Part shown: positions 3,658 to 14,778 of the stretch, one piece after another
Layout of the letters: each line of letters opens with the position of its first letter
How positions within the stretch are numbered: position 1 is the stretch's first letter
Assembly: GCA_021813325.1 (NCBI GenBank)
Contig: JAKALA010000003.1
Coordinates: 61,114-125,113 of the forward strand
Length of the DNA: 64,000 nt
Direction: 5' to 3'
From: a bacterium
GTDB taxonomy: Bacteria > Verrucomicrobiota > Verrucomicrobiia > Limisphaerales > UBA11358
Translations under genes and position numbers: made by a program
Notes under the pieces: generated by a model
The model's database searches: none
What the model was told of the DNA's origin: nothing
What the model saw: the letters and a program-made list of their open reading frames with translations, nothing else

Positions 3658-5757
3658 ATGAAAAACTACTCACCTGCGGAAATTCGCAACTTCGCCATCG
3701 TCGGTCATGCCTCGTCGGGAAAAACCATGTTGAGCGAGGCCATGCTGCGCTGTGCGGGAACGATCAACCGGATGGGCAAAATCGCCGACGGTTCGACGGT
3801 CTCGGACTACCACGTCAGCGAAAAGAACCGGCAGATTTCCGTGTCGGCCTCGTTGCTGCATCTGGAGTGGGCGGAAAAGAAATTCAACATCATCGACACG
3901 CCCGGCTATCTGGATTTCATTAGCGAAGGTTTGGGGGCGTTGCGCGTGGGCGATTTTGCGCTGGTGGTCATTGATGCGCGGGACGGGCTGGGGGTGGGCA
4001 CCGACCGGGTTTGGGATTATGCCCATAACTACGGCATTCCCAAAATGATCGTCATTAACGGCATCGACAAGGAGAATTCCCGGTTTGATGAGGTGCTGAA
4101 AACCACCCGGGACCATTTCGGCCGGCACGTTTTTCCCTTGAACATTCCGGTCAACGCAGGCCCCGGCTTCAACCAGGTGCTGGACGTGTTGCGCAATGAA
4201 GTGGCGACCTACGCCACCGATGCCTCGGGCAAATACTCCGAGGAGTCCGCCAAGGGAGTTTGGGCGGACAAAGTGAAGGAATTGCATCGCGAGCTGATCG
4301 AGCACATCGCTGAATCCGACGATGCGTTGATGGAGAAATTTTTTGCGCAAGGCACGCTGGCGGAGGAGGAGTTTCGCGCCGGCATACACGCAGCGGTGCA
4401 GAAAGAGTTGTTCATTCCTCTTTTCTGCACCTCGGCGGAAAACAACATTGGCGTCGCGCGGTTGATGGATTTTATCTCAAAATACGGCTCCTCTCCGGTG
4501 GATCGAAAAAGCGTTCCCGCCTTGGACGCCAATGACAATGCAACGGAGGTGCTGCTCAATAACAGTGAAACGGTGGCCTATGTGTTCAAAACCATGTCCG
4601 AGGCGCACTTCGGCGAACTGTCATTTTTCCGGGTGTATTCGGGGACCGTGCATAGCGGCATGGATTTGTTCAACAGCGACCGCAAGGTGACCGAGCGGGT
4701 GGGCCAGATATTTTTGTTGAACGGGCAAAATCGGGAGGGCGCTCCCGCGTTGGGGCCCGGCGACATCGGCGCCACCGTCAAGCTCAAGGACACGCACACC
4801 GGCAACACGCTTTGTTCCGCGAAACATCCGCTGACACTGCCCAAAGTGGTCTATCCCAAGCCCAACATTCACGCGGCATTGATCGCCAAAGTCAAAGGCG
4901 AGGAGGAAAAGATTGCTTCCGGACTCGCCGCCTTGCACGAGGAGGATCCCACGTTCCTCTACGTGGTGGATTCGGAATTGCACCAGACCATTCTTTCAGC
5001 CCAGGGCGAGTTGCATCTGGAAGTCATTGCCGACCGGCTGCGCCGCCGCCACAACGTGCATGTGGATCTGGAGGCGCCGCGTGTCAAATATCGTGAAACC
5101 ATCAAAGGCCGGGGCGAATCGAAATATCGCCACAAAAAACAAACCGGCGGCGCCGGGCAGTTTGCCGAAGTCTGGATGCGGATCGAACCCAAACCGAGAG
5201 ACTCGGGCGTGGAATTTACCCAGTCGCTGGTCGGGCAGAACGTGGACCGGAATTTCGTGCCGTCCGTGGAAAAGGGTGTGCAGCAGGTTTGCATCGAAGG
5301 CGTCATTGCCGGCTGCCGGGTGACGGACGTTAAGATCGATTTTTACGACGGCAAAATGCATCCGGTGGATTCCAAGGACATTGCCTTCCAGATCGCGGGA
5401 TATTTCGCCTTCAAAGAAGCCTTTAATGTCGCCAAACCCTGCCTGCTCGAACCCATCGAGACCGTCGAGATTCACATCCCGGAAGATTTCATGGGCAAAG
5501 TCATGGGCGACCTTTCCTCGCGCCGCGGGAAAATTCTCGGCATGGATACCGACGGCGCCTTCCAGGTCATCAAGGCACACGTGCCGACGGCGGAACTGTA
5601 TCATTATTCCAGCACGTTGCGCTCGTTGACGGGTGGCCGTGGCGTGCATACCGAGGAATTCAGTCACTACGAGGAAATGCCGCGGGATGCCGCTGAAAAG
5701 GTGGTGGCCGAAGCCGCCAAGCGGAAAGCCAATCATTCCAATCACGAACCGCACTGA
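3658..5757 (+). CDS. Elongation factor G paralog (stand-alone, not in a str operon context)
   Basis: G1 AIVGHASSGKT, G3 DTPGYLDF, and EF-G domains II-V recognisable through to the C-terminus. G4 reads NGID instead of NKxD. Confidence 0.9.
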   Translation: MKNYSPAEIRNFAIVGHASSGKTMLSEAMLRCAGTINRMGKIADGSTVSDYHVSEKNRQISVSASLLHLEWAEKKFNIIDTPGYLDFISEGLGALRVGDFALVVIDARDGLGVGTDRVWDYAHNYGIPKMIVINGIDKENSRFDEVLKTTRDHFGRHVFPLNIPVNAGPGFNQVLDVLRNEVATYATDASGKYSEESAKGVWADKVKELHRELIEHIAESDDALMEKFFAQGTLAEEEFRAGIHAAVQKELFIPLFCTSAENNIGVARLMDFISKYGSSPVDRKSVPALDANDNATEVLLNNSETVAYVFKTMSEAHFGELSFFRVYSGTVHSGMDLFNSDRKVTERVGQIFLLNGQNREGAPALGPGDIGATVKLKDTHTGNTLCSAKHPLTLPKVVYPKPNIHAALIAKVKGEEEKIASGLAALHEEDPTFLYVVDSELHQTILSAQGELHLEVIADRLRRRHNVHVDLEAPRVKYRETIKGRGESKYRHKKQTGGAGQFAEVWMRIEPKPRDSGVEFTQSLVGQNVDRNFVPSVEKGVQQVCIEGVIAGCRVTDVKIDFYDGKMHPVDSKDIAFQIAGYFAFKEAFNVAKPCLLEPIETVEIHIPEDFMGKVMGDLSSRRGKILGMDTDGAFQVIKAHVPTAELYHYSSTLRSLTGGRGVHTEEFSHYEEMPRDAAEKVVAEAAKRKANHSNHEPH

Positions 5758-5867
5758 GCCAATGCCATTGCGCAGACGTGCGGGTCAGCCCTGCACCGGT
5801 GCGGGAATGGGGCTTGTGAATGTGGCTTGAATCCGACCGCGAGACAGACAGAATCTTGCGGTCACGT

Positions 5868-6521
5868 ATGATTCCAAACGCAAAGACAGGTTCCAGTCGC
5901 TTTTCCACCTCGGTGTTTGTGTCGGTTGGCTTGACCGTGTTTCTGCTGACCTTCTTGAGCAGTGTCCTCATCACATTTGTGCTTCCTGAAAGTTATGAAA
6001 GCACGGCGCGCATCAAGGTGGATGCTGATAATCCGCCTTACGTTAACCTTGAGTTGCTGCAATCGCGCGTGGTTTTGGAGCCAGTTATTGCCACGTTGAA
6101 CCTAAACCAGGCCTGGGGCAAACGTTATTTAAAAGGCGAGCAACTCCAGACGGAAGAATCTTACAAGCTGCTGCAAAATCGCCTGAGTCTCGTCCCGATT
6201 CGCAATACGAAGCTGATCAATGTCTCGGTTACCAGTGAAGATCCGCGCGAGGCGGCGCTCATTGCCAACGCGGTGGCGGAGAACTACCAAGATTACTTCA
6301 AGCGTGCCACGGCGAACACAAATTTGGAGACTGCTGCCAATCTGACCGTGCAAATCATAGAGCGGGCTGAACCAAGCCAGGTGCCGTCACGTCCGCACAA
6401 GCCGGCTAACATGATTACCGGCGCTTTTTGCGGCTTGGTGTTGGGAGCTTGCGCCGGCGGGCTGTCCGCCTGGCTGGTTCCCAAATTTGGCCAACGGAGA
6501 GCCAGTGTCACGCCGGCCTGA
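5868..6521 (+). CDS. Wzz/GumC-like polysaccharide chain-length determinant domain protein (short form)
   Basis: An N-terminal TM helix is followed by LPESYESTARIKVD...LQSRVVLEPVI (Wzz-type N-domain) and a C-terminal TM helix. The start is ATG 5868 or 5820. Confidence 0.65.
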   Translation: MIPNAKTGSSRFSTSVFVSVGLTVFLLTFLSSVLITFVLPESYESTARIKVDADNPPYVNLELLQSRVVLEPVIATLNLNQAWGKRYLKGEQLQTEESYKLLQNRLSLVPIRNTKLINVSVTSEDPREAALIANAVAENYQDYFKRATANTNLETAANLTVQIIERAEPSQVPSRPHKPANMITGAFCGLVLGACAGGLSAWLVPKFGQRRASVTPA

Positions 6522-7101
6522 TCGGGCTGGCCGCGACTTTTGATTGCGCCGGCAAATCTCCACCGGAACGAACCGGCATAACTGTGATGAGCCGATGACC
6601 GCACACTTCAATTGAATCCTCTGATACCAATTCTTTGTGATAATCGCCACAATGTGATTGTAATTACGGATGGGAGATGAGATCAGCACGGCCTGGCACG
6701 AGCGCATCTGAAACTAACGGTAACCAGTCCAACGTGGCCGAACTAACCTGCTTTACCAGTTCCCGCTGCGGCTGCTCAACCGACCGTGGTGCCGTTCATA
6801 GGGCGGCGGCCATAGTTGCAACGCCGGGGCTAGTCTTGTCTCCTTTTGAAAACTACACGACACCTAAACCAAAAAACATTGCCACGACGGTAAATCCCTT
6901 TTATCTTTTTGGCGGATGACATATGTGTTCTCCGTTGCGGTTTGAATGCCTAAGTCCGTCTCGATCGGGCGGTCCAATGTTAACATTCCGTCCAGAATGT
7001 CGCATTTGGCTGTAGCATTTTTTAAGTTTATGGGGTCCAAAGACCCTTAGGGGTGGGTTGGACTCAAGAACGCCTTGTAAAATGACCTTAATTTAACGGT
7101 T

Positions 7102-7176
7102 GCGCGGTTAGCTCAGTGGTAGAGCACGTCCTTCACACGGACGGGGTCAGAGGTTCGAAACCTCTACCGCGCACCA
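7102..7176 (+). tRNA. tRNA-Val: tRNA-Val (anticodon CAC), CCA encoded
   Basis: Hand-folded cloverleaf: acceptor GCGCGGT/ACCGCGC, D arm GCTC-AGTGGTA-GAGC, anticodon arm CGTCC-TTCACAC-GGACG, variable GGGTC, T arm AGAGG-TTCGAAA-CCTCT, discriminator A, CCA. Confidence 0.95.
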
Positions 7177-7560
7177 CTCCACCAGTTTGACTGGTGCCCG
7201 CAACAGTGACCACGGCTTAACGCAGGAACCACGGGCTTTTTTGTAGTCGAGGATAAGCTTCAAGCCAAACATTTTTTGAGCGAGAACCCGCTTCTCTTGA
7301 AGTGAACCCATTTCAGCGATTTTCCCCGCGTTTTTAGCGGTTAAAATCCATTCTGTGAATGGTTCGAGCCAATCGGCTCGGCCTGTCAAAAGCGCGGGGC
7401 TTTGCTCCTCCAAAGATTTCTTCTGGCTCATTGCTTTGGGCTTCTCCGCCACGAACGCCTCACGGTTGTTGGCGCCGGTTTGAAACTGGGGTAAATTCGC
7501 CGATCTGAAAATGCGGTGATTTGGAGGGGATGCGGACATGAACAGGGCGGCCCAACCCAT
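7147..7560 (-). pseudogene. Possible C-terminal fragment of a large serine recombinase. Its last 10 codons are antisense to the tRNA-Val 3' end
   Basis: WLEPFTEWILTAKNAGKIAEMGSLQEKRVLAQKMFGLKLILDYKKARG...KPWSLL resembles, from memory, the C-terminal tails of recombinase-family proteins. No catalytic N-domain is present. The fragment overlaps the tRNA at 7147-7176. Confidence 0.4.
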
Positions 7561-7599
7561 GTTGGCTAGGCGAGCCGCCGGTGCGGAGGGAAGTTGGAC

Positions 7600-7779
7600 T
7601 TACGGGGTTTCGATCTGGTCTTTCATGCGATAACTCTTGCCTTCCAAGATCACGGTTTCGGTGTGATGCAGGAGCCGGTCCAGCACGGCGCTGGTGAGAG
7701 TTCTGTCGTTGTTGAAGATTTTAGGCCAATGTTTATAGGGCTGGTTGGTGATGAGCAGGATCGGACCTTGTTCGTAATC
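7600..7779 (-). pseudogene. IS21-family IstB helper ATPase, C-terminal 59-codon fragment
   Basis: My own translation of the minus strand gives DYEQGPILLITNQPYKHWPKIFNNDRTLTSAVLDRLLHHTETVILEGKSYRMKDQIETP*. This matches the conserved IstB C-terminus (...TTN..F.EW..VF.D....A.LDRL.HH......G.SYR.K). No N-terminal part is present. Confidence 0.75.
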
Positions 7780-8046
7780 GTCGGGATGCCATCTTGATTC
7801 AAGAACAAATGGTCAACCGACCATCGGTTTGAGCCATCCATCCTTTCCCGAGGCAAGTTCCGCTTCACGTTTGACCAGCAACCAGCGCCGAGGTCGCGCG
7901 CTGTCCATTTGGTCGCCCGCCAGAAAATTCGGATATTTCGCCAGTAATTCCTGCAACAAATTTTCCGAATCGTAAGGCTGTTCATCCATCCGAATGCGCT
8001 GGTCATTGTCTTTTACGAGAAATATTCCAGGGTTCGTGCTTTTGAT
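7780..8046 (-). pseudogene. N-terminal fragment of a conserved nuclease-like protein (tentatively NucS/PD-(D/E)XK-like), frameshifted and truncated by the IstB fragment
   Basis: Frame A reads GIFLVKDNDQRIRMDEQPYDSENLLQELLAKYPNFLAGDQMDSARPRRWLLVKREAELASGKDG. After a 1-nt shift near 7840, frame B reads SNRWSVDHLFLNQDGIPT. Homology stops abruptly at the IstB junction (~7780). The family assignment is from memory only. Confidence 0.5.
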
Positions 8047-8076
8047 CTGTGTTTGTCTTTGTCCATCTGCGGCTTA
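8044..8076 (-). repeat. Orphan copy of the CACRRAT-triplet terminal repeat (family A), overlapping the deoR-family stop codon
   Basis: The minus strand reads TAAGCCGCAGATGGACAAAGACAAACACAGATC. Compare TTAACCACAGATGGGCACAGATGAAACACGGATG at 8883. Confidence 0.7.
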
Positions 8077-8859
8077 AATTTGATTACCATTCGCCTGAGG
8101 TGCAGGCGCAACCACCACTTCCACGCCGTGCGCGCGCAATCCGTTCACCAGCTCCGCCGGCGCCTGGCTGTCGGTGACGACGGTATCAATCATGTCCAAC
8201 CCGCATAACGGCGAGACGGATTGCCGGCCAAACTTCGTGTGATCGAGGCAGAAAATGATTTTCTGCGCGGCCTTGAGCATCGCCCGCTGGATGTCAATCA
8301 GCAGCGCGTGCGAATTGGTGATGCCTTCCAGCGTGATGCCGCCGGCGCTCATGATGGCCACGTCCGCGCGCATTTTGGAAAACGCCTCGACCGTCATCGT
8401 CCCGACCAGCACGCCGAGCCGCGGATAAATCACGCCGCCAGCGAGAATCACTTCCACTTTGTTTGCGGAGGCGTAAAGGTTGGCCACCGGCAGCGAATTC
8501 GTCACGATCTGCGGCGCTTTTTCTTCGAGATGCCGCGCGACGTGAAAGACCGTCGTGCCGGCGTCGAGAATGACGCTTTGATTGGCGCCGATGAGTTCGG
8601 CGCACGCCTTGCCGATCAGTTCCTTTTCCGAAAGCTGCTGGGTGTCGCGTTTGGAAAACGCAAATTCATCCGATTTCGGCTGGACGATGCGTGCGCCGCC
8701 GTGGGTGCGCCGCAAATTGCCCGTTGCTTCCAGCACCGACAAATCGCGCCGCACGGTGGAGACCGACGCCTCGACGTGCTCGGAAAGCTCATCCAGCGAC
8801 GCGAATTCCACGCGTTGAAGATATTCTTCAATGCGGTGTTTGCGTTCTTCGGCGGTCAT
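8074..8859 (-). CDS. DeoR-family transcriptional regulator (HTH + sugar-phosphate-binding domain), presumed BMC-locus regulator
   Basis: N-terminal DeoR HTH (ASLDELSEHVEASVSTVRRDLSVLEATGNLRRTHGGA) and a C-terminal DeoR sensor domain. A DeoR regulator is a standard component of PVM-type BMC loci. Confidence 0.9.
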   Translation of the reverse strand: MTAEERKHRIEEYLQRVEFASLDELSEHVEASVSTVRRDLSVLEATGNLRRTHGGARIVQPKSDEFAFSKRDTQQLSEKELIGKACAELIGANQSVILDAGTTVFHVARHLEEKAPQIVTNSLPVANLYASANKVEVILAGGVIYPRLGVLVGTMTVEAFSKMRADVAIMSAGGITLEGITNSHALLIDIQRAMLKAAQKIIFCLDHTKFGRQSVSPLCGLDMIDTVVTDSQAPAELVNGLRAHGVEVVVAPAPQANGNQI

Positions 8860-8922
8860 GGGTTCGGTTCAAAAAATTATTTTTAACCACAGATGGGCAC
8901 AGATGAAACACGGATGAAAAAT

Positions 8923-9294
8923 TCAACTGCCTTTCGGAATGCCAAAAACTTTATTGTGCGCTTCTTGTTTTAGCCATTCAACCAAAAGAGAAAAAGTCCA
9001 CGACACGCCTGGTTTTAGAAAAGTATCTTTTGCTTTTTTCCAAATTGTATCATTTCGAGCGGCATCAAGAAAATCATGGCCAGCCCAAGTAAGTCTATAA
9101 ATTGTTGCTTCACTGGGAATCAAGTTCGTTGTTGTTACATCTCCTTCGACTAAACCATTATCTTTCATTAGCGCGATTTGATATGCTTCATCAGGCGTTG
9201 AGGCCTTAAATAGTTCATGGGGTTCGCCATTTTCAAAATTACGGGACTCGGCATCAATCAGTATCTGCCGAATTAAATCCATGTCGCGTTTCAT
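8923..9294 (-). CDS. DUF2513-family small protein (winged-helix-like)
   Basis: The N-terminus MKRDMDLIRQILIDAE matches the DUF2513 hallmark as I recall it. The composition is ordinary and AT-rich. It lies 33 nt downstream of the 348-aa gene. Confidence 0.7.
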   Translation of the reverse strand: MKRDMDLIRQILIDAESRNFENGEPHELFKASTPDEAYQIALMKDNGLVEGDVTTTNLIPSEATIYRLTWAGHDFLDAARNDTIWKKAKDTFLKPGVSWTFSLLVEWLKQEAHNKVFGIPKGS

Positions 9295-9327
9295 TTCAGA
9301 AATATGTGTTGAATGATTAAAGATCTA

Positions 9328-10374
9328 TCAATTCAAAACCTTTTGAATTTCATTTTGATACTCCAGCAAACGCTTTATAGCCAACTGAGAAATACCATAA
9401 ACAATCACGCAATCTATTCCCTCGTGGAGTTTCAAAATTGCCGATAAGCGCATATTGAAATAAAAAATTGATAACTGGTCGTCTGGCAATTCCGTTAAAA
9501 TCTTTTGTTGGTTATATTTTTCAGCGAAATCATAAATCTGTTTTTCTGAAAGTCCCAACCCGTCGTGATTTCTAGTAAAATACATTGCGGCGTTATTGCG
9601 ATTTTGTCTATCTATCACTGATGCGTATTGCGCTGACATATTGCCCAACCGCTTGGTGATTGATCCAAAGACTTCCGCTTCAATTCTCTGATAGCTTTCT
9701 TTTCCAAAAGCACATTTTTTAATCATTACGGCAGCAATGGCTACGTTGGCGTAATAGGCGACAACTTCATTCAACAGCAACTCGTATTTATTGCTTTGCA
9801 ACTTTAAGCTGGCAGCGTTTTCCGCCATCGCAGCAAGCTCACCAGAAGAAGCAACGGCGAATTGTAGAATTGAATTTGCCAATTCAAAAAACGGAATTCC
9901 ATCATTGCTATTTTGCGCTAAATCTCTCTCAATTTTTTCACGAGTTGCGTTTTGAAGTTGTTTCAACCGCTTAACATCGGGGTCGTTGCCATCGGGATCG
10001 AATAATGGCAATTCCTGTTTGTAATCCGGCCTTAAACCTTCGGCTAAATATTTTTCCACCTCATATTGAAGATGCTGCTCTAAATGGCCGGGCATCATCT
10101 CATAAACCTTCAAAAATTTTAACACGATACAATTGTCAAATAATGCTGGAATGTGTTCACCTCGCTGCGCAGCGGCTTGGTGAAAAGCCGTTGTGACGAG
10201 CGTGTATATTTCCATGATTTTTTGATCCGTTGTCTTTGCTGTCGGAGCACAACCATATTGCGCGGCAAATCTGCGATAGCCTTTGACGATGAGTTTGCCG
10301 CTGACTTCTCGAATCTCATCCAACATTGTGCGCGGCTTTGGCTGTGTCCCAAATAAACTTTTTAGAAAGCTCAT
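9328..10374 (-). CDS. Hypothetical 348-aa protein, no domain recognised (predicted all-alpha by eye)
   Basis: A long clean ORF with non-biased composition in the AT-rich islet. The ATG lies 54 nt inside the right terminal repeat. I could not identify any catalytic motif. Confidence 0.75.
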   Translation of the reverse strand: MSFLKSLFGTQPKPRTMLDEIREVSGKLIVKGYRRFAAQYGCAPTAKTTDQKIMEIYTLVTTAFHQAAAQRGEHIPALFDNCIVLKFLKVYEMMPGHLEQHLQYEVEKYLAEGLRPDYKQELPLFDPDGNDPDVKRLKQLQNATREKIERDLAQNSNDGIPFFELANSILQFAVASSGELAAMAENAASLKLQSNKYELLLNEVVAYYANVAIAAVMIKKCAFGKESYQRIEAEVFGSITKRLGNMSAQYASVIDRQNRNNAAMYFTRNHDGLGLSEKQIYDFAEKYNQQKILTELPDDQLSIFYFNMRLSAILKLHEGIDCVIVYGISQLAIKRLLEYQNEIQKVLN

Positions 10375-10454
10375 AGGCTTTATTTAATTTTTTCCCTTTG
10401 GTTAATCTCGTTTCATCTGTGGTTCAAATTTTCTTTCGCTGTTCGCGTGTGTGC

Positions 10455-10680
10455 GCAATTCCAATCCCAACGGGATTGCATCGTTCAGCCCAGGGTTGGC
10501 CGCGCAGCGGACTACCCTGGGTCAACCATTCAAAATATTTTCAACCCCAACGGGGTTGCGTCGCCGCTCTCCACCAACGGCCACAACCCTTTCCGGGTTG
10601 TTTTTTACTGGGCCGCGAACCCAGGGTAGCTCGTTCCTCGCAACCCTAGGCTGAAGGACGGAATCCCGTTGGGGTTCCAC
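10455..10680. repeat. Cluster of REP-like palindromic units
   Basis: Palindromes AATCCCaacGGGATT (10463-10477), CCCAGGGT...ACCCTGGG (10489-10521), AACCCCaacGGGGTT (10543-10557), ACAACCCtttccGGGTTGT (10583-10601) and an imperfect one, GAATCCCgttGGGGTTC (10660-10676). The overlapping ORFs on both strands are translation artefacts. Confidence 0.8.
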
Positions 10681-10693
10681 AAAATGCACTGCG

Positions 10694-10781
10694 TTTGACG
10701 GCATTTGACATCAGTTTTGCATGACTTTGATAGAGTTTGGAAGATTTTGCAATAAAAATGTTGACCTGTTCCTAAAATTTG
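10694..10781 (+). promoter_or_regulatory. Helically phased TTTG(A/C) repeats upstream of pduL (candidate operator array or curved promoter DNA)
   Basis: TTTG starts at 10694, 10704, 10716, 10726, 10736, 10746 and 10778 (spacings of 10, 12, 10, 10, 10 and 32 nt). TTGACA/TTGACC and TTTGCA hexamers recur. Confidence 0.4.
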
Positions 10782-10799
10782 TCAAAGTGGTGCAAACTT

Positions 10800-11477
10800 A
10801 TGGCTGTTGCAGCACCTGCACCTCATCGTGCCGTCGTCGAACATCTGGTTCGGCAGGCGGTTTATGCGCGTCTCGGCAAGCCGTTGCCGCGCGTTGCCAG
10901 CGGACAAAGTCCGCTCGTCGTCAACGTCAGCGCGCGTCACTGCCATCTCACGCCGGAAGCGGTGGAAACCCTTTTTGGTAAGGGCGCGAAGCTCAATGTC
11001 CACAAGTGGCTTTACATGGACGGCCAGTTCGCCGCGAAAGAAACCGTCACGCTCATCGGACCGCGCAGCCGCGTGATTTCCAATCTCCGCATTCTCGGCC
11101 CGTGCCGCAATCTCAACCAAGTCGAGCTGGCTTACACCGACGCCGTCGCTCTCGGTTTTGAGATTCCGTTGCGCAGTTCCGGCGACATCAAGGACACGCC
11201 GGGTGCGATGTTGATGGGGCCGGCGGGATTTTTTGAATTGCCGGTCGGCGTCATCCGCGCCAAGCGTCACGTGCATATGCACCCGAACGACGCGGAATTT
11301 TACGGCGTGAAAGCCGGCGACCACATGAAGCTGAAGATCGGCGGGCCTTGCGCCATCACGCTGGATGAATTGCTGGTGCGCGTCGATCCGAGTTTCAAAT
11401 TAGAAGTGCATATTGATACGGACGAAGGTAATGCGTGTAATTTGCAGCCTGATACGCCGGTAGAACTGATTAAATAA
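10800..11477 (+). CDS. pduL: PduL-type phosphotransacylase (BMC-associated)
   Basis: Two PduL repeats with His motifs (VNVSARHCHLT and AKRHVHMHPNDA). There is an N-terminal amphipathic helix, RAVVEHLVRQAVYARL. The ORF track starts at TTG 10779, but ATG 10800 is preferred. Confidence 0.9.
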   Translation: MAVAAPAPHRAVVEHLVRQAVYARLGKPLPRVASGQSPLVVNVSARHCHLTPEAVETLFGKGAKLNVHKWLYMDGQFAAKETVTLIGPRSRVISNLRILGPCRNLNQVELAYTDAVALGFEIPLRSSGDIKDTPGAMLMGPAGFFELPVGVIRAKRHVHMHPNDAEFYGVKAGDHMKLKIGGPCAITLDELLVRVDPSFKLEVHIDTDEGNACNLQPDTPVELIK

Positions 11478-11625
11478 GACGAACCACGAATGGACACGAA
11501 TCAACACGAATTATTTTTGACCGCGAAATACACAAAATATGCGAACGTGAGTTTGCTTTCGCGTGGTTCGTGTATTTCGCGGTTAAAGGATTTGTGTTCA
11601 TTAGTATTTATTCGTGGTTAAAAAT
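11478..11625. repeat. Family-A inverted-repeat element (148 bp) with an internal 14-bp perfect stem
   Basis: Left GACGAACCACGAATGGACACGAATCAACACGAAT. The right end on the minus strand reads TTTAACCACGAATAAATACTAATGAACACAA. Internal stem: ACCGCGAAATACAC (11520-11533) pairs with GTGTATTTCGCGGT (11570-11583). Confidence 0.8.
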
Positions 11626-11660
11626 TTTCTTCAATACTTAACAAACAACCAAAACTAAAT

Positions 11661-11945
11661 ATGAGCGAAGCAATAGGAATGATTGAAACCAAAGGCTACG
11701 TTGGCAGCGTGGAAGCCAGCGACGCCATGGTCAAAGCAGCCAACGTCATGTTGGTTAAAACCGTCCCCATCGGCGGCGGATTGATCACCGTCATCGCCCA
11801 GGGCGACATCGGCAGCATCAAGGCCGCCGTGGACGCCGGAGCCAAAGCCGCCGCGAAAGTCGGTGAACTCGTCAGTTCTCACGTCATCGCCCGGCCGCAC
11901 GAGGAGCTGCTCGAAGCCTTCATTGGCGCCGGCGTAAAAAAATAA
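11661..11945 (+). CDS. BMC-H shell protein (PduA/EutM-like hexamer)
   Basis: MSEAIGMIETKGYVGSVEASDAMVKAANV... is the canonical Pfam00936-type sequence. Confidence 0.95.
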   Translation: MSEAIGMIETKGYVGSVEASDAMVKAANVMLVKTVPIGGGLITVIAQGDIGSIKAAVDAGAKAAAKVGELVSSHVIARPHEELLEAFIGAGVKK

Positions 11946-11978
11946 TCCAACATCAACCAAATTTAACCTCTCACAAAT

Positions 11979-12257
11979 ATGTCAAAGCAAGCCGTTGGAA
12001 TGATCGAATGTAAAGGCTTCTGCGCCGCCGTGGAAGCCGCTGACGCCGCCCTGAAATCGGCAAACGTCCATATTTCCGGTTGGGAAAAAGTCGGCAGCGG
12101 TTACGTCACGGTGTTTTTCAAGGGCGACGTCGCTGCCGTAAAAGCGGCTACCGATTCCGGCGCCGCCGCCGCCGCCCAGGTGGGTGCCGTGGTCTCGGTG
12201 CAGGTAATTCCGCGTCCACATGAAGATTTGAGCGGGCTTGGAAAGTGGCTCGAATGA
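11979..12257 (+). CDS. BMC-H shell protein (second paralog)
   Basis: [26 protein letters not shown]... is a BMC-domain sequence. Confidence 0.95.
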
Positions 12258-12259
12258 TT

Positions 12260-12328
12260 TTCAATTTCCAATCGCCACATGCCAATTGAACAAACAGTTC
12301 GCGCGGCTTTGGAAAATTGGAAATTGAA
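12260..12328 (+). promoter_or_regulatory. Intercistronic stem-loop (13-bp perfect stem) between BMC-H2 and ackA
   Basis: TTCAATTTCCAAT (12260-12272) pairs with ATTGGAAATTGAA (12316-12328). It starts 3 nt after the BMC-H2 stop codon. Confidence 0.5.
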
Positions 12329-12343
12329 TCTTGAAAATTGGCA

Positions 12344-13657
12344 ATGAAGATCCTTGTCGCCAACATCGGCAGCACGTCGCTCAAGTGGCGTTTGTATGAA
12401 TTCGCCGCCAGCGTAGCTGCGACGCCCCGTCGCAGTGAGGTGGGCGCGACGCCCTCGTCGCGTGTTTCCGGCGTCGAGGCGACGCCTGCCCCCTGTTGCG
12501 ACGAGGCGTCGCAGCCACGCCTTTTGCACAAAGGCGGTTTTGAGCGCGTCACCGATTATCCCAAGGCGATTGAAGATTGCCTCACCGAGTTAAAAAAGGC
12601 CAACGTCATCGCCAGCGAAAGCGAATTGAGCGCCGTCGGCTTCAAAACCGTCATCGCCAAAAACGTCACTGGTTGCGTGCATATCGATGAGCGTGTGCTG
12701 CAGGCCATGACGGATTTCAACGGTCTGGCGCCCGCACATAATCCTCCCTATATCACCGGCATCAAACTCTTCGCTCAAAGGATGCCGGGGGTGCCGCTCA
12801 TCGCCCTATTTGAAACGGCGTTTCATCAATTCGCTCCGGAAGCATCGCAACGCTATGCGGTGCCGCAGGCATGGTTGGATATTGGCATCCGCCGGTGGGG
12901 ATTCCACGGCGCGAGCCACAAGTTCATCGCCGAACGTTCGGCAGAATTGCTCTGCCGACCGGATGTGGCCGAACATGCGCGACAACTTTACGTCAGCAAT
13001 GACAAAAGCTTCCAGCCAGCGGATTTGGGATGCGGGGGCAGGCCAACCGCAGCCCTGCGTGTGATTTCCTGCCATCTCGGCGGCAGTTCAAGTGTAACGG
13101 GCATATTGAATGGCGCGTCCATAGGCACCAGCATGGGCCTGAGTCCGCAATCTGGTTTGCCGCAAAATAATCGCGTGGGCGATCTCGACGCCGAGGCTCT
13201 GCCCTACGCGGTGAAGATGCTCGGCATTAGCGTGGAAGAAGCCCAACGCCAGCTTACCAAGGAAGGTGGATTGAAAGGTTTGAGCGGCTTGTCCAACGAC
13301 ATTCGTGATATCGGCGAGGCCGCCGCCAAAGGTGACGTCAAAGCAAAACTGGCTCTGGATGCTTTCGTGGCCAGCACGCGGCACTGGATCGGCAGTTTCT
13401 TTCTGCAATTGAATGGCGTGGACGCCATTGTCTTCACGGCTGGAATTGGTGAAAACCGCGCCGATTTGCGCGCCGCCATCTGCGCCAATCTGGAAAACCT
13501 CGGCATCAAGTTGGATGCGGAGAAAAACGCCGCCACCAAGGCGAATGAAGCTGTGATCAGCGCGGCGGATTCGCTGGTAAAGATTTTTGTCATTCCCACC
13601 AACGAGGAACTCGTCGTGGCGCGGGAAACCAAACGGTTTTTGGAAGCGAATAAGTAG
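12344..13657 (+). CDS. ackA: Acetate/propionate-family kinase
   Basis: MKILVANIGSTSLKW, APAHNPPY, FETAFHQ, WGFHGASH, CHLGGSSS, FTAGIGEN and IPTNEELV are canonical AckA motifs. The ORF track starts at TTG 12338, but ATG 12344 is preferred. Confidence 0.92.
   Translation: MKILVANIGSTSLKWRLYEFAASVAATPRRSEVGATPSSRVSGVEATPAPCCDEASQPRLLHKGGFERVTDYPKAIEDCLTELKKANVIASESELSAVGFKTVIAKNVTGCVHIDERVLQAMTDFNGLAPAHNPPYITGIKLFAQRMPGVPLIALFETAFHQFAPEASQRYAVPQAWLDIGIRRWGFHGASHKFIAERSAELLCRPDVAEHARQLYVSNDKSFQPADLGCGGRPTAALRVISCHLGGSSSVTGILNGASIGTSMGLSPQSGLPQNNRVGDLDAEALPYAVKMLGISVEEAQRQLTKEGGLKGLSGLSNDIRDIGEAAAKGDVKAKLALDAFVASTRHWIGSFFLQLNGVDAIVFTAGIGENRADLRAAICANLENLGIKLDAEKNAATKANEAVISAADSLVKIFVIPTNEELVVARETKRFLEANK
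12415..12517 (+). repeat. Three GC-rich palindromes plus a fourth GCGACGCC unit, embedded in frame inside ackA
   Basis: CTGCGACGccCCGTCGCAG (12417-12435), GCGACGccctCGTCGC (12446-12461), GAGGCGACGCC (12476-12486) and TGCGACGaggCGTCGCA (12496-12512). Translated, they give ...ATPRRSEVGATPSSRVSGVEATPAPCCDEASQ. Confidence 0.8.
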
Positions 13658-13816
13658 CCACAGATGAACACAGGTAAACATAGATTAAAAATTGGTGGAA
13701 CGAGGCACCTCACCCCGACCCTCTCCCCATTTTGCCCTGCAAAACGCGGAGAGGGAGAAACACTCCCAGCGGCTTTGCAAAATCCGTGTCCATCTGTGTT
13801 TATCCGTGGTTGAAAC
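13655..13816. repeat. Family-A inverted-repeat element (162 bp) starting on the ackA stop codon
   Basis: Left TAGCCACAGATGAACACAGGTAAACATAGAT. The right end on the minus strand reads TTCAACCACGGATAAACACAGATGGACACGGAT. Inner stem: CCCTCTCC (13719-13726) pairs with GGAGAGGG (13748-13755). Confidence 0.8.
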
Positions 13817-13853
13817 AATTTTTTAACAACAATTAACCAACAACTATAAAATT

Positions 13854-14135
13854 ATGCCTCAAGCCATTGGAATGATTGAAACGCGCGGACTCGTCGCCCT
13901 CGTCGAGGGGACGGACGCCATGCTCAAGGCCGCCAACGTCGAACTCGTCGGCCCGATGACCCAGGTCGGCAACGCGCTCGTGACGGCGTGCGTTGTAGGC
14001 GATGTCGCCGCCGTCAAGGCCGCGACCGATGCCGGCGCCCAGGCCATCAAAGCCATCAAAGGCGAACTGGTCAGCGTCCACGTCATCGCCCGTCCGCACA
14101 ATGATGTGGAAGCGGTGTTGCCGAAGAAGAAGTAA
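13854..14135 (+). CDS. BMC-H shell protein (third paralog)
   Basis: [29 protein letters not shown]... is a BMC-domain sequence. Confidence 0.95.
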
Positions 14136-14140
14136 GCGTA

Positions 14141-14209
14141 GCGGCGTCTCGGCAGAGCGCCGCCATCCGCTTCAAAAAAATTTATTGCGGCGCTCTGCCG
14201 AGACGCCGC
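14141..14209 (+). promoter_or_regulatory. 23-bp perfect-stem palindrome between BMC-H3 and the first BMC-P gene
   Basis: GCGGCGTCTCGGCAGAGCGCCGC (14141-14163) is the exact reverse complement of GCGGCGCTCTGCCGAGACGCCGC (14187-14209). The loop is 23 nt and A/T-rich. Confidence 0.7.
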
Positions 14210-14224
14210 CACCAAAACAAAGCC

Positions 14225-14536
14225 ATGTTTTTAGCCAAAGTTGAAGGCACACTGGTTGCCACCAAAAAAGACCCGTCCATGAGCGGGCGCAAGCTCTTGC
14301 TGGTGCGTCCGCAGCTCGTGGACGAAAAGGATCCGACGAAGTTTCGCCCGGGGACGAACACCATCGTGGCCGTGGATAGCGTCGGCTGCGGCGAAGGCGA
14401 GATGGTTCTCTTCTGCCAGGGCAGCAGCGCGCGGCTGGCCGGCGGCATGAAGGAAGCCCCGGTGGATGCGGTCATCATCGGCATTGTGGACAGCGTGGAC
14501 GTGTTTGGAAAACAAATCTTCAGCGCGAAAAGTTGA
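14225..14536 (+). CDS. BMC-P vertex protein (EutN/CcmL family)
   Basis: MFLAKVEGTLVATKKDPSMSGRKLLLV...AVDSVGCGEGEMV is a Pfam03319-type sequence. Confidence 0.9.
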   Translation: MFLAKVEGTLVATKKDPSMSGRKLLLVRPQLVDEKDPTKFRPGTNTIVAVDSVGCGEGEMVLFCQGSSARLAGGMKEAPVDAVIIGIVDSVDVFGKQIFSAKS

Positions 14537-14778
14537 ACCCCGAATCAACACGAATGGACGCAAATCCTGAAAACAAATTGCTGTTGAAGGAAGAAGTCTA
14601 TCAGATCGTGGGTTCGGCAATTGATCGAGTCACCGACGCAGAACGTGGCCAGATTTTGAATTATTTGCGAATCACGAAACTTCGGGTAGGCGTGATTCTA
14701 AATTTTAAAAAACCCGAAATTGGAATGGGAACGTATTGTTCTCTGATTAGTGTGAATTTGTGTTCATTAGTGGTTTAA
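14534..14778 (+). pseudogene. Decayed GxxExxY (PD-(D/E)XK-type) gene inside a family-A inverted-repeat element
   Basis: KLLLKEEVYQIVGSAIDRV is joined directly to TDAERGQILNYLRITKLRVGVILNFK, so the central ~85 aa including the GxxExxY core are missing. After the A6 run at ~14705-14712, the canonical C-terminus NPKLEWERIVL* is read in the +2 frame (stop 14744-14746). Terminal repeats lie at 14534-14566 and 14745-14778. Confidence 0.7.

Follow-up and report, generated by a model that had tools for sequence, protein, structure and literature searches.

Phased heptamer repeats in a BMC locus bound very small insertion elements of a widespread and apparently undescribed family

The window, a 64-kb stretch of verrucomicrobial DNA, carries nine copies of a repeat of ~30-32 nt between positions 8045 and 14778, and no motif copies were found in the remainder of the window. 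Each of these motifs is a terminal inverted repeat (TIR) belonging to a widespread family of insertion elements of very small size. In its canonical form, the unit of ~470 bp consists of a TIR, one GxxExxY gene (~125 aa, with an ATG that usually lies within the TIR) and an inverted TIR. In the BMC locus of the window, only derivatives are present: a GxxExxY pseudogene element, two gene-less doublets, an element with foreign cargo and a lone end. The family is apparently undescribed; a sequence-only reading that had drawn attention to the repeats knew of no precedent, and a published description of such a system was not found in the literature either. With a probability of about 0.62, these are GxxExxY insertion elements whose ends are mobilized by the GxxExxY nuclease, the DNA between the ends being moved in trans.

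In the motif consensus, AACCAC-RRAT precedes two ACAC-RRAT units at a phase of 10 nt, and each TIR of ~32 nt contains three C-R-C-N-N-A-T heptamers, one helical turn apart. A scan with AACCRCNNATNNACRCNNATNNACRCNNAT, allowing 0-3 mismatches, matched seven window copies, i.e., 8045-8074(-), 11482-11511(+), 11590-11619(-), 13656-13685(+), 13782-13811(-), 14536-14565(+), and 14746-14775(-), and the same scan on 2.2 Mb of shuffled sequence yielded 0 matches. With a looser two-heptamer scan, 9 of the 11 window matches fell in 8.8-14.8 kb (~1 expected), and a further count gave 18 vs. 6.3 expected, a number reached in 0 of 100 shuffles. Every copy sits where it had been reported before, and the four inward-facing pairs indeed span 1548, 148, 162, and 245 nt. 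The stop codons of DeoR (8074-8076), PduL (11475-11477), AckA (TAG, 13655-13657), and EutN (TGA, 14534-14536) had also been placed correctly. The features are as follows.

8045..8076, minus strand: lone, partly decayed terminal repeat with 3-4 motif mismatches
8885..8915, plus strand: left TIR of the cargo element, AACCACAGATGGGCACAGATGAAACACGGAT, second spacing 11 nt, otherwise a good copy
8923..9294, minus strand: cargo gene 2, DUF2513 protein of 123 aa (Pfam PF10711, E=1.1e-23)
9328..10374, minus strand: cargo gene 1, 348-aa all-helical protein, start 21 nt from the right repeat
10395..10424, minus strand: decayed right TIR of the cargo element, AACCACAGATGAAACGAGATTAACCAAAGG on the minus strand
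11478..11625, no strand assigned: gene-less palindromic doublet, repeats 11482-11511(+) and 11590-11619(-)
13655..13816, no strand assigned: gene-less doublet, repeats 13656-13685(+) and 13782-13811(-)
14534..14778, plus strand: decayed GxxExxY element, repeats 14536-14565(+) and 14746-14775(-)

The outer end of the lone repeat abuts the DeoR stop codon, and its inner edge is a synteny break relative to relatives, in which RnfC-like and BMC-T genes follow DeoR; neither was found in the window. Positions 8041-8895 are collinear (86%) with positions 5210-6064 of the related locus L314, where the region contains an intact GxxExxY gene bounded by a perfect repeat. The truncated nuclease-like gene that had been proposed at 8046-7780 is not supported, as it gave no GxxExxY signal (hmmsearch --max, tblastn) and no Pfam or NCBIfam match. 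The junction at 8885..8915 is occupied in L314 too; L312/L313 have no insertion here, with a DeoR-PduL spacer of 87 nt. At the other end of this element, the first unit of the right TIR is intact and the remainder is degenerate. The enclosed cassette was rightly described as low in GC (0.36-0.43 vs. 0.56-0.62 in its neighbors). Its DUF2513 gene (GC ~0.38) stops 8 nt from the left repeat. The 348-aa protein has no match in Pfam, NCBIfam or PADLOC, and its AlphaFold model (pLDDT 84) has no fold match in the PDB. Homologues of this protein with 70% and 57% identity interrupt unrelated operons and have decayed motif copies on their flanks.

The doublet at 11478..11625 lies directly 3' of the PduL stop codon and contains a nested palindrome; its arms have 0 and 1-2 motif mismatches, and it folds into a 148-nt hairpin (-68.3 kcal/mol, z=-9.6). 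In the doublet at 13655..13816, the first base of the element helps to form the AckA stop codon. Similarly, the EutN stop codon is supplied by the end of the element at 14534..14778. The latter carries a GxxExxY pseudogene that has lost ~70 aa internally and has a 1-nt frameshift, after which the native stop codon (TGA, 14744-14746) is reached; its recognition as a GxxExxY remnant is borne out by matches to Pfam PDDEXK_3 (E=1.4e-6) and TIGR04256 (E=2.7e-7). Since no intact GxxExxY nuclease gene is present within the 64 kb, the window copies are non-autonomous, as had been suggested.

The elements in the window are insertions relative to the orthologous BMC loci of relatives, most of which show empty sites with spacers of 8-87 nt, in line with the earlier idea of inserted mobile-type DNA. 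Overall, L310, L312, L315, and L316 have empty sites, as does L317 for the most part. The site next to PduL (11478..11625) is empty in L310, L312, L315, L316, and L317, with spacers of 37-48 nt, and filled in L314 and L328. The site next to AckA (13655..13816) is empty in L310, L312, L314, L315, L316, and L317. L328 has the same inner sequence as the window at this site but in inverted orientation, and L329 has another inner sequence with CACGAAT heptamers. At the 14534..14778 site, the spacer between EutN and Aldh is only 8-12 nt in L310, L312, L314, L315, and L316, and L317 contains a compact doublet without a gene. A doublet at the DeoR stop codon in L312 is of an unusual TIR type that matches the GxxExxY gene of the L312 genome itself. 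At occupied sites, the inner sequence turns over and inverts, which fits the cassette-type exchange envisaged before.

The contigs with exact motif matches have been assigned to more than 12 phyla, and 101 IMG/VR stretches contain such matches as well. Because of this distribution and because the orthologous sites are mostly empty, the repeats are not regulatory DNA of the BMC locus. A role as non-mobile host elements, either DeoR-family operators of the BMC locus or hairpins kept as terminators, mRNA stabilizers or RNase III sites, might be suspected, as the BMC locus contains all nine copies, by the DeoR gene and between genes of one operon, direct repeats phased at 10 nt look like operator arrays, and the doublets form very stable hairpins. 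However, such a role is already contradicted as the primary explanation by the empty orthologous sites. Furthermore, the repeats occur in unrelated contexts, including phage-like contigs, and bracket GxxExxY genes; compensatory pairing between the arms does not go beyond the common consensus, no Rfam family matched, and terminator-like sites are not enriched. This explanation is, therefore, scarcely credible, but the repeats may have a secondary influence on transcripts.

Family-wide, gene-less palindromic doublets are far commoner than gene-bearing units: in 42 of 49 adjacent inward-facing pairs, the distance is ≤300 nt. The variable TIR positions show agreement within a locus (0.75) and none between loci (0.55), and the heptamer variant is specific to each genome. 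None of 154 pairs showed a target-site duplication, and a sparse sample revealed no genome with near-identical copies at separate sites. An outer end frequently overlaps the host stop codon and provides a new stop in its place. Among 497 ends, ~22% lie ≤10 nt from the stop codon of a long ORF, and a TAA overlapping the repeat gives rise to a sharp peak. The proposed targeting of stop codons does not follow from this, as selection on tolerated insertions, aided by the stop-forming end of the element itself, could equally explain the peak.

GxxExxY (PF13366/TIGR04256) is a PD-(D/E)XK nuclease family of 12,811 clusters at 50% identity. In loci selected by the motif, it was the sole recurrent family of neighboring ORFs, and all seven complete GxxExxY genes, on seven contigs of various taxa, were bracketed by inward-facing repeats. 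When 80 GxxExxY loci were ascertained by protein alone, the motif was present upstream in 52/74, downstream in 49/71, and on both sides in 41/65, and most of the remaining loci had variant phased heptamers, e.g., with CGC, with NN=CG/TG, or CACAGAG. A motif-blind test of flanking inverted 20-mers gave at least 15 matches for 81% of the GxxExxY genes vs. 9% of 302 control ORFs, and at least 17 matches for 68% vs. 1%. Distant members in isolates of Treponema, Gemmatirosa, and Bernardetia are flanked alike. The median element measures 469 nt. Of 62 genes, 30 begin with an ATG located 12 or 22 nt into the TIR, and in most genes 0-16 nt separate the stop codon from the opposite TIR. As the upstream gene is co-oriented in 41 of 61 cases, GxxExxY is probably expressed by read-through from its neighbor. 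The nuclease motifs E35, P73-D74, D84-x-K86, and Q98xxxY102 are conserved, but the predicted structure reached a pLDDT of 38 only, and no solved structure of a relative was found.

Other cargo between such ends comprises the 348-aa protein (three contexts), PIN and HSDR_N. Cargo does differ between pairs, with the 348-aa gene recurring elsewhere between the same kind of ends, and the start of the cargo ORF adjoins or falls inside a repeat and reads away from it, as was noted before. These unrelated cargo types, with the other cargo genes typical of toxin/defense modules, together with the re-use of sites and the absence of target-site duplications, would suit repeats that are recombination sites of a separate site-specific recombinase or host pathway, with GxxExxY as the commonest passenger, e.g., a toxin or defense nuclease. 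This is distinctly unlikely. No integrase or recombinase lies beside the elements in the window or the fetched loci, the sole integrase seen belongs to an island without the motif, and an unlinked enzyme would need the same distribution over more than 12 phyla. PADLOC defense models do not include GxxExxY, and near-universal bracketing with a start codon inside the repeat is what a cognate gene, unlike a passenger, would be expected to show. GxxExxY had initially been taken for one cargo among several; being near-universally bracketed across phyla, it is, instead, the candidate for the trans-acting nuclease that was to be sought.

In the favored mechanism, a GxxExxY dimer or higher oligomer would, judging from the sequences, bind the phased heptamers at both ends and cut at the element ends, after which host repair or recombination would complete excision, insertion or copying. 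Because the ends alone would be recognized, gene-less doublets and any DNA between two ends could be moved or exchanged in trans, by analogy with MITEs and mobile insertion cassettes of IS elements and with REPINs of RAYT transposases. PD-(D/E)XK enzymes hydrolyze DNA but are not known to carry out strand transfer by themselves, and the joining step is, therefore, unaccounted for. Also counting against this mechanism are the 348-aa, PIN, and HSDR_N cargo, which shows that ends can exist without GxxExxY, and the lack of an intact GxxExxY gene in the window.

Alternatively, GxxExxY may be a homing-type endonuclease that cuts empty gene-less doublets, its natural symmetric target of twice three heptamers. 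Repair on a gene-bearing template, with the 30-nt repeats as homology, would then copy the gene or other DNA in either orientation, and the doublets would be landing pads rather than derivatives, spread by another route. The gene always lies exactly between the halves of a palindrome that is contiguous elsewhere, target-site duplications are absent, inner sequences are inverted or unrelated at one orthologous site, variants are homogenized within genomes as expected from gene conversion, and fused two-domain GxxExxY proteins suggest a dimer on a symmetric site. Nevertheless, homing is rather unlikely, as it leaves the arrival of doublets at new stop-adjacent sites unexplained and 30 nt is near the minimum homology for RecA-type repair. 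Moreover, within a genome the arms of a given element resemble each other no more closely than they do those of other elements, so that no special left-right relationship is visible.

Elements with ends mobilized by GxxExxY resemble several known systems. Like REP/REPINs with their RAYTs, they comprise a small nuclease-type gene bracketed by inverted copies of a repeat that is otherwise dispersed, mostly as gene-less inverted intergenic doublets just after stop codons, with lineage-specific variants and without target-site duplication. However, GxxExxY is a PD-(D/E)XK protein, whereas RAYT is an HUH/Y1 IS200-like transposase. Each repeat unit, unlike REP, is non-palindromic, lacks the GTAG/CGTC tag and consists of three direct heptamers at a 10-nt phase. 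RAYTs are single-copy, whereas GxxExxY appeared to recur within single assemblies (per-genome copies uncounted), and the present ends enclose additional cargo genes. With MITEs and MICs (IS231/MIC231), the family shares TIRs that bound nothing (MITE) or passenger genes (MIC), presumably mobilized in trans by the protein of a full-length element. Multiple subterminal protein-binding repeats are found at the ends of Tn7 and Mu. In contrast to IS-derived MITEs and MICs, the present elements have no DDE, serine or tyrosine transposase and no target-site duplication, and the sole product of the ~470-bp full-length element is the ~125-aa nuclease.

[quoted passage not shown] Its four helix bundle family (S23p, TIGR02436/PF05635) differs from GxxExxY in fold and in repeat sequence, and classic IVSs are located within rRNA, from which RNase III excises them at the RNA level. 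The architecture of an inverted-repeat-bounded wedge gene is the same; in L317, the same BMC operon has an S23p-type gene wedged in it, with phased GTTAGAA repeats forming inverted arrays on either side. Homing endonuclease genes, free-standing or intron-borne (including PD-(D/E)XK I-Ssp6803I), are likewise small nuclease genes inserted precisely into or between conserved genes, with presence/absence polymorphism among relatives and probable expression by read-through, but they have no long inverted-repeat bounds, do not leave behind abundant gene-less repeats, and spread between alleles, not to many sites per genome. Integron gene cassettes are similarly compact and promoter-less, their cargo varies, and content is exchanged at a fixed site; however, a cassette has one attC site, whereas the present elements have two inverted ends, no intI or attI, and a site unrelated in sequence and structure. 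Unlike the present family, the Correia elements (CREE) of Neisseria duplicate a TA target, are limited to a single genus and lack an associated gene; like it, they are short, TIR-bounded intergenic palindromes that can alter transcript ends and gene termini.

Between positions 8045 and 14,778, the window reads as it had been described from the sequence alone. The genes for DeoR, PduL, three BMC-H proteins, AckA, EutN and aldehyde dehydrogenase (Aldh) are as had been stated, and a ~30-nt repeat recurs between them, all copies being intergenic. It delimits the following units, in which a doublet is an inward-facing inverted pair without a gene and GxxExxY is the PF13366/TIGR04256 family of PD-(D/E)XK nucleases:

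8045-8076: lone repeat at the stop codon of the DeoR gene
8885-10424: cargo element with two genes
11478-11625: doublet after the PduL gene
13655-13816: doublet after the AckA gene
14534-14778: element with a GxxExxY remnant, after the EutN gene

The three heptamers of the proposed motif are present, but they are phased 10 nt apart (AACCAC-RRAT, nnA-CAC-RRAT, nnA-CAC-RRAT) instead of being contiguous, which is why a contiguous pattern without spacers gave 0 matches. Seven copies in the window fit the 30-nt pattern with 0-3 mismatches, whereas an identical scan of 2.2 Mb of shuffled sequence gave none. The copy at 8885-8915 has one spacing of 11 nt, and the one at 10395-10424 is decayed. A looser, two-heptamer scan placed 9 of its 11 window matches within 8.8-14.8 kb, where ~1 was expected, and a separate count gave 18 matches in the window against 6.3 expected. 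The sequence logo of 378 distinct copies depicts a sharply bounded unit, consisting of three direct 10-nt units and devoid of an internal palindrome or tag. Its invariant positions are A-A-C-C-A-C..A-T..A-C-A-C..A-T..A-C-A-C..A-T; the central dinucleotide varies (AG, GG or GA), and the 3 nt outside the unit are only weakly T-rich.

Neighbouring copies mostly face inward at distances of 2-240 nt, forming palindromic doublets, and 42 of the 49 adjacent inward pairs are at most 300 nt apart. The window doublets fold as long hairpins (-68 kcal/mol, z=-9.6, and -52 kcal/mol, z=-3.9). Nevertheless, sequence rather than pairing is conserved, and each lineage has its own variant. At variable positions, the arms of one element agree no more often than those from separate elements of a locus (0.75 in both cases), as compared with 0.55 for arms from different loci, and a test for arm-to-arm compensation was negative. 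In 154 pairs, the complementarity of the paired ends reaches just 2 nt past the 30-mer, and no direct repeat of 2-5 nt is enriched at any offset; these elements lack a target-site duplication. A search for near-identical doublets at different sites, which would be a sign of recent transposition, turned up nothing but orthologous copies and a single local tandem pair.

Exact matches to the 30-nt pattern lie in 101 stretches of IMG/VR contigs; for species-representative genomes, the matches listed already cover more than 120 stretches. Record titles of the matches listed name Verrucomicrobiota, Planctomycetota, Acidobacteriota, several proteobacterial classes, Cyanobacteria, Bacteroidota, Chloroflexota, Nitrospirota, Nitrospinota, Methylomirabilota, Hydrogenedentota, Kiritimatiellia, Lentisphaerota and others. 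These exact matches in IMG/VR contigs and in many phyla rule out that the repeat is regulatory DNA specific to this locus. In four phage-like IMG/VR contigs (L060, L077, L092 and L097), doublets are located directly 5' of a large ORF of 789-817 aa, which, from its size and sequence, is guessed to encode a tail tape-measure protein. The repeats may, therefore, travel from host to host with viruses.

GCA_027452485.1, GCA_027452465.1 and several runs show the arrangement of the window unchanged; samples with this strain include SRR13300764, SRR13241953 and ERZ272368xx. Orthologous BMC loci of relatives, designated by L numbers, were fetched via AckA homologues. In the AckA tree, the window pairs with L328, and L329 joins them, whilst a second group comprises L317, L310, the pair L314 and L312, and the pair L315 and L316. 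Empty sites were looked for in these relatives and do exist: repeats are absent from L310, L315 and L316, and most sites are empty in L312 and L317. The spacers of empty loci measure 37-48 nt between PduL and BMC-H, ~40-60 nt between AckA and BMC-H, 8-12 nt between EutN and Aldh and 87 nt between DeoR and PduL. Such empty orthologous sites contradict a role of the repeats as host operators or terminators. Likewise, an operator array for the DeoR-family regulator is at odds with positions that are not conserved across the orthologous loci. Promoter and terminator scans revealed no enrichment, and Rfam searches, at gathering thresholds and at E≤1, returned only tRNA and spurious miRNA-type matches on an unrelated hairpin.

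The filled sites differ in content among relatives, and their inner sequences are replaced and inverted. The site after PduL is occupied in the window, L328 and L314, and in L312 it contains the 6-nt sequence TATCCG, which may be a scar. The site after AckA is occupied in the window, L328 and L329; L328 has the inner sequence of the window in inverted orientation, and L329 has a different inner sequence together with CACGAAT heptamers. After EutN, the GxxExxY remnant of the window stands against a compact, gene-less doublet in L317, where the EutN ORF reads into the repeat and ends at its ATGA. At the DeoR stop codon, the window contains a lone repeat, L314 an intact GxxExxY element plus a doublet, and L312 a doublet of its own variant, the type that also brackets its GxxExxY gene 10 kb away. 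Synteny with the relatives is lost at 8045, where the lone repeat has its inner edge. All six relatives whose locus continues downstream of DeoR have RnfC-like and tandem-BMC genes 3' of DeoR, which are absent from the whole window. In their place, the window contains:

7102-7173: tRNA
7174-8045: ORFs without a family match

The lone repeat marks a rearrangement or deletion breakpoint.

At several filled sites, the element end helps to form the host stop codon (TAG|CCAC, T|AACCAC or TTGA|ACC). Of the stop-codon-proximal targeting that had been proposed, the proximity stands. Among 497 outer ends, 111 are located between -12 and +10 nt from the stop codon of a long ORF, and in 30 the TAA overlaps the first two repeat bases exactly. 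Thus, the adjacency is real and enriched, but it concerns a minority of the ends, and targeting is inseparable from selection.

The gene that belongs to the repeat appears to be GxxExxY. When loci were selected by the motif and screened for ORFs with a start a short way into a repeat and pointing away from it, GxxExxY was the only family that recurred across unrelated loci, and all complete GxxExxY genes in these loci were bracketed by inward-facing repeats. To remove the ascertainment bias, 80 metagenomic GxxExxY loci were picked by protein similarity alone. With at most 5 mismatches out of 24, the motif was present upstream in 52 of 74, downstream in 49 of 71 and on both sides in 41 of 65, and most of the apparent negatives have variant phased heptamers (CGC for CAC, a central CG or TG, or the GACACGAAT type). 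In a motif-blind test, inverted flanking 20-mers with at least 15 matches were found at 81% of the GxxExxY genes and 9% of 302 control ORFs; with at least 17 matches, these figures were 68 and 1%. Distant members (27-35% identity) encoded by replicons of Treponema saccharophilum, Gemmatirosa kalamazoonensis and a Bernardetia sp., all cultured, are flanked likewise. Proteins of the family from cultured strains include WP_040842287.1 (T. saccharophilum pTS1) and WP_338790993.1 (Bernardetia sp.), as well as paralogues in Gemmata and Planctopirus. Thus bracketed, the family is near-universally associated with the repeats, in lineage-specific variants; close relatives share heptamer variants, and a comparison of protein clades with variants gave no deep clade-specific pattern. 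Among viral contigs with GxxExxY, a single locus was confirmed, which has no repeats.

Measured between its outer ends, the GxxExxY element has a median length of 469 nt. The upstream repeat contains the ATG, at a depth of 12 or 22 nt, in 30 of 62 genes, which explains N termini of the MNTDEHG type, and the stop codon is usually located 0-16 nt ahead of the downstream repeat. The upstream neighbour is co-oriented in 41 of 61 cases. The proteins retain E, PD, (D/E)xK and QxxxY residues, a set that, in PD-(D/E)XK nucleases, is the mark of an active RecB/Cas4-like nuclease core. Several members (P0362, P0387, P0392, P0406 and others) are two-domain fusions of 250-290 aa. These fused tandem pairs belong to a family of 12,811 clusters at 50% identity, and fusions of full domains are consistent with a single-domain protein that would work as a dimer. 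The family has no solved structure; a PDB sequence search with its profile gave no match at E≤10, and an AlphaFold model, for which only closely related sequences served as input, was unusable (pLDDT 38). A survey of PD-(D/E)XK proteins lists the function of GxxExxY as unknown (PMC3424549).

The GxxExxY remnant that had been noticed in the window was confirmed as ORF 14533-14778, with a Pfam score of 29.1 bits (cut-off 22; E=1.4e-6). Its TIGR04256 score of 30.9 bits falls short of the 35-bit cut-off, as the match is confined to the C-terminal third. The ORF has an internal deletion of ~70 residues (~25-90 of intact members) and a frameshifted 3' end, so that the TGA at 14744-14746 is its native stop codon. 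Lacking an intact catalytic core (the GxxExxY glutamate, PD and (D/E)xK), it is a pseudogene. In contrast, the truncated nuclease-like gene that had been placed at 8046-7780 found no support: no GxxExxY remnant is present in 7174-8090.

Cargo does differ between copies, as had been claimed. The element at 8885-10424 is a low-GC segment with a DUF2513 gene and a gene for an all-helical 348-aa protein without family assignment, for which a fold search against the PDB gave no match below E=0.3. Homologues of the latter occur alone between sugar kinase and aldolase genes (L318-L320) or adjoining CTP synthase (L321), in both cases between or behind decayed copies of the window motif; a more distant homologue resides in an integrase island without the motif. 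Elsewhere, an HSDR_N-like and a DUF3368 protein (L106) or a PIN protein (L267) are encoded between paired repeats, and at the cassette site of the window, the orthologous repeats of L314 flank a different insert, of ~400 nt. These differing genes and inserts make the cargo variation real. PADLOC gave no match for GxxExxY or for either cargo protein of the window.

The most far-reaching interpretation, to which we assign a rough probability of 0.45, is that GxxExxY is the mobilizing nuclease, either a transposase or a repeat-targeted homing enzyme, of an unrecognized class of minimal DNA elements. As a joint reading, it holds that elements of ~470 bp, present in contigs assigned to more than 12 phyla, are recognized via three helically phased heptamers per end, integrate at or over stop codons, supplying a new stop and duplicating no target, generate abundant gene-less palindromes and are able to swap or carry other genes. 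In the mechanism we favor, GxxExxY, which probably forms a dimer or higher oligomer, would bind the three heptamers on one helix face at each end and then cut at the ends; host repair would complete the movement, and gene-less doublets and cargo units would be moved in trans. A closely related alternative is homing: the nuclease would cleave doublets that lack a gene, and repair would copy it into these. Homing would account particularly well for inversion, cargo exchange and homogenization, and presence/absence polymorphism at precise sites in conserved DNA, as sought for homing endonucleases, was found at sites S1-S5 of the BMC locus. Less likely is a cassette system that depends on an unlinked recombinase: the bracketing of GxxExxY is too regular and too close, and no gene for such an enzyme was found next to the elements in the BMC stretch or in the fetched loci.

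Further repeats are also present in these loci. An in-frame insertion of 41 aa in AckA (12411-12520, within ackA at 12344-13657) is a GC-rich imperfect palindrome of the CGTCGCA type with 43-nt arms that are 74% complementary. It is shorter (32-33 aa) at the same position in L328 and L329, and the AckA orthologues of the other clade (six loci; 395-409 aa) lack it; a repeat element appears to be tolerated within the coding sequence. In the DeoR-PduL spacer, a second, unrelated repeat family (AATCCCAACGGGATTGCATCG...; 10459-10680) adjoins the decayed right end of the cargo element and has 36-nt inverted arms (86% complementary) plus an internal direct repeat. A GC-rich hairpin between BMC-H and EutN (14138-14212; 29-nt arms, 93% complementary) has a related palindrome at the same place in L314, and yielded only spurious plant miRNA models, far under threshold, in Rfam. 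The core of the doublet at 11478-11625 (11516-11587) is itself an inverted pair with 30-nt arms (83% complementary) and resembles the CGC variant of the motif (GACCGCGAAATACAC...), which suggests that one doublet is nested within another. In L316, furthermore, a unit that contains CGTCGCAA(C/G) occurs more than 10 times and fills the DeoR-PduL spacer (6250-6560), and the Aldh-EutN spacer (11415-11490) has a hairpin of AACAAAGG-type phased repeats. Several distinct families of intergenic repeats are present in these lineages.

The association with the repeat would give GxxExxY a concrete candidate role and a defined candidate DNA substrate. If the joint reading is true, a function is provided for ~12,800 protein clusters, and an element type with only a PD-(D/E)XK protein joins the known classes of transposons. 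If the nuclease does mobilize the ends, its enzymatic route to transposition, or to repeat-directed homing, would be new, and the elements would be among the smallest of the autonomous type known. For annotation, the repeats create spurious small ORFs (e.g., with MNTDEHG... N termini), change the C termini and stop codons of host genes and flag rearrangement breakpoints. Gene calls in Verrucomicrobiota, Planctomycetota, Acidobacteriota and other groups would, therefore, benefit from their recognition.

The literature searched in full text, of which the coverage is incomplete so that an earlier account is possible, describes neither the repeat nor its link to GxxExxY. The chance is substantial that this family of repeats, with its cognate nuclease gene, constitutes a new class of elements. 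It works most like the REP/REPIN-RAYT and IS/MITE/MIC families but fails the defining tests of each. Like IS-derived MITEs, the doublets (148 and 162 nt, with arms of ~30 nt) are short, bounded by inverted repeats and without a transposase gene. Unlike MITEs, they show no target-site duplication (154 pairs) and have no parent IS with a DDE, HUH, Ser or Tyr transposase, GxxExxY being the only recurrent enclosed gene. Dispersed extragenic inverted doublets are shared with REP/REPIN-RAYT systems, and the geometry of the flanked gene is analogous. However, the REP unit is an imperfect palindrome, short and headed by GTAG or CGTC, whereas three direct units are found here, and the flanked gene is PF13366 and not an IS200-like HUH/Y1 transposase. 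Integrons combine an intI integrase and attI with cassettes that have one attC each, in contrast to the two inverted ends per unit seen here, and no integrase was found in the gene calls of the BMC stretch that the window has in common with L303-L309 or beside the elements in L310-L317. A further comparison is offered by genes for four-helix-bundle (23S rRNA IVS) proteins, of which the IVS of Coxiella is considered a selfish element (PMC4990558). One such gene (23S_rRNA_IVP/TIGR02436) is located between the Aldh and EutN genes of the orthologous BMC operon in L317 (11496-11905), bracketed by inverted arrays of phased GTTAGAA-type repeats. Both the protein and the repeat differ from those described here, but the architecture of a wedge gene between inverted phased repeats is the same, an analogy that hints at a broader class of wedge elements.
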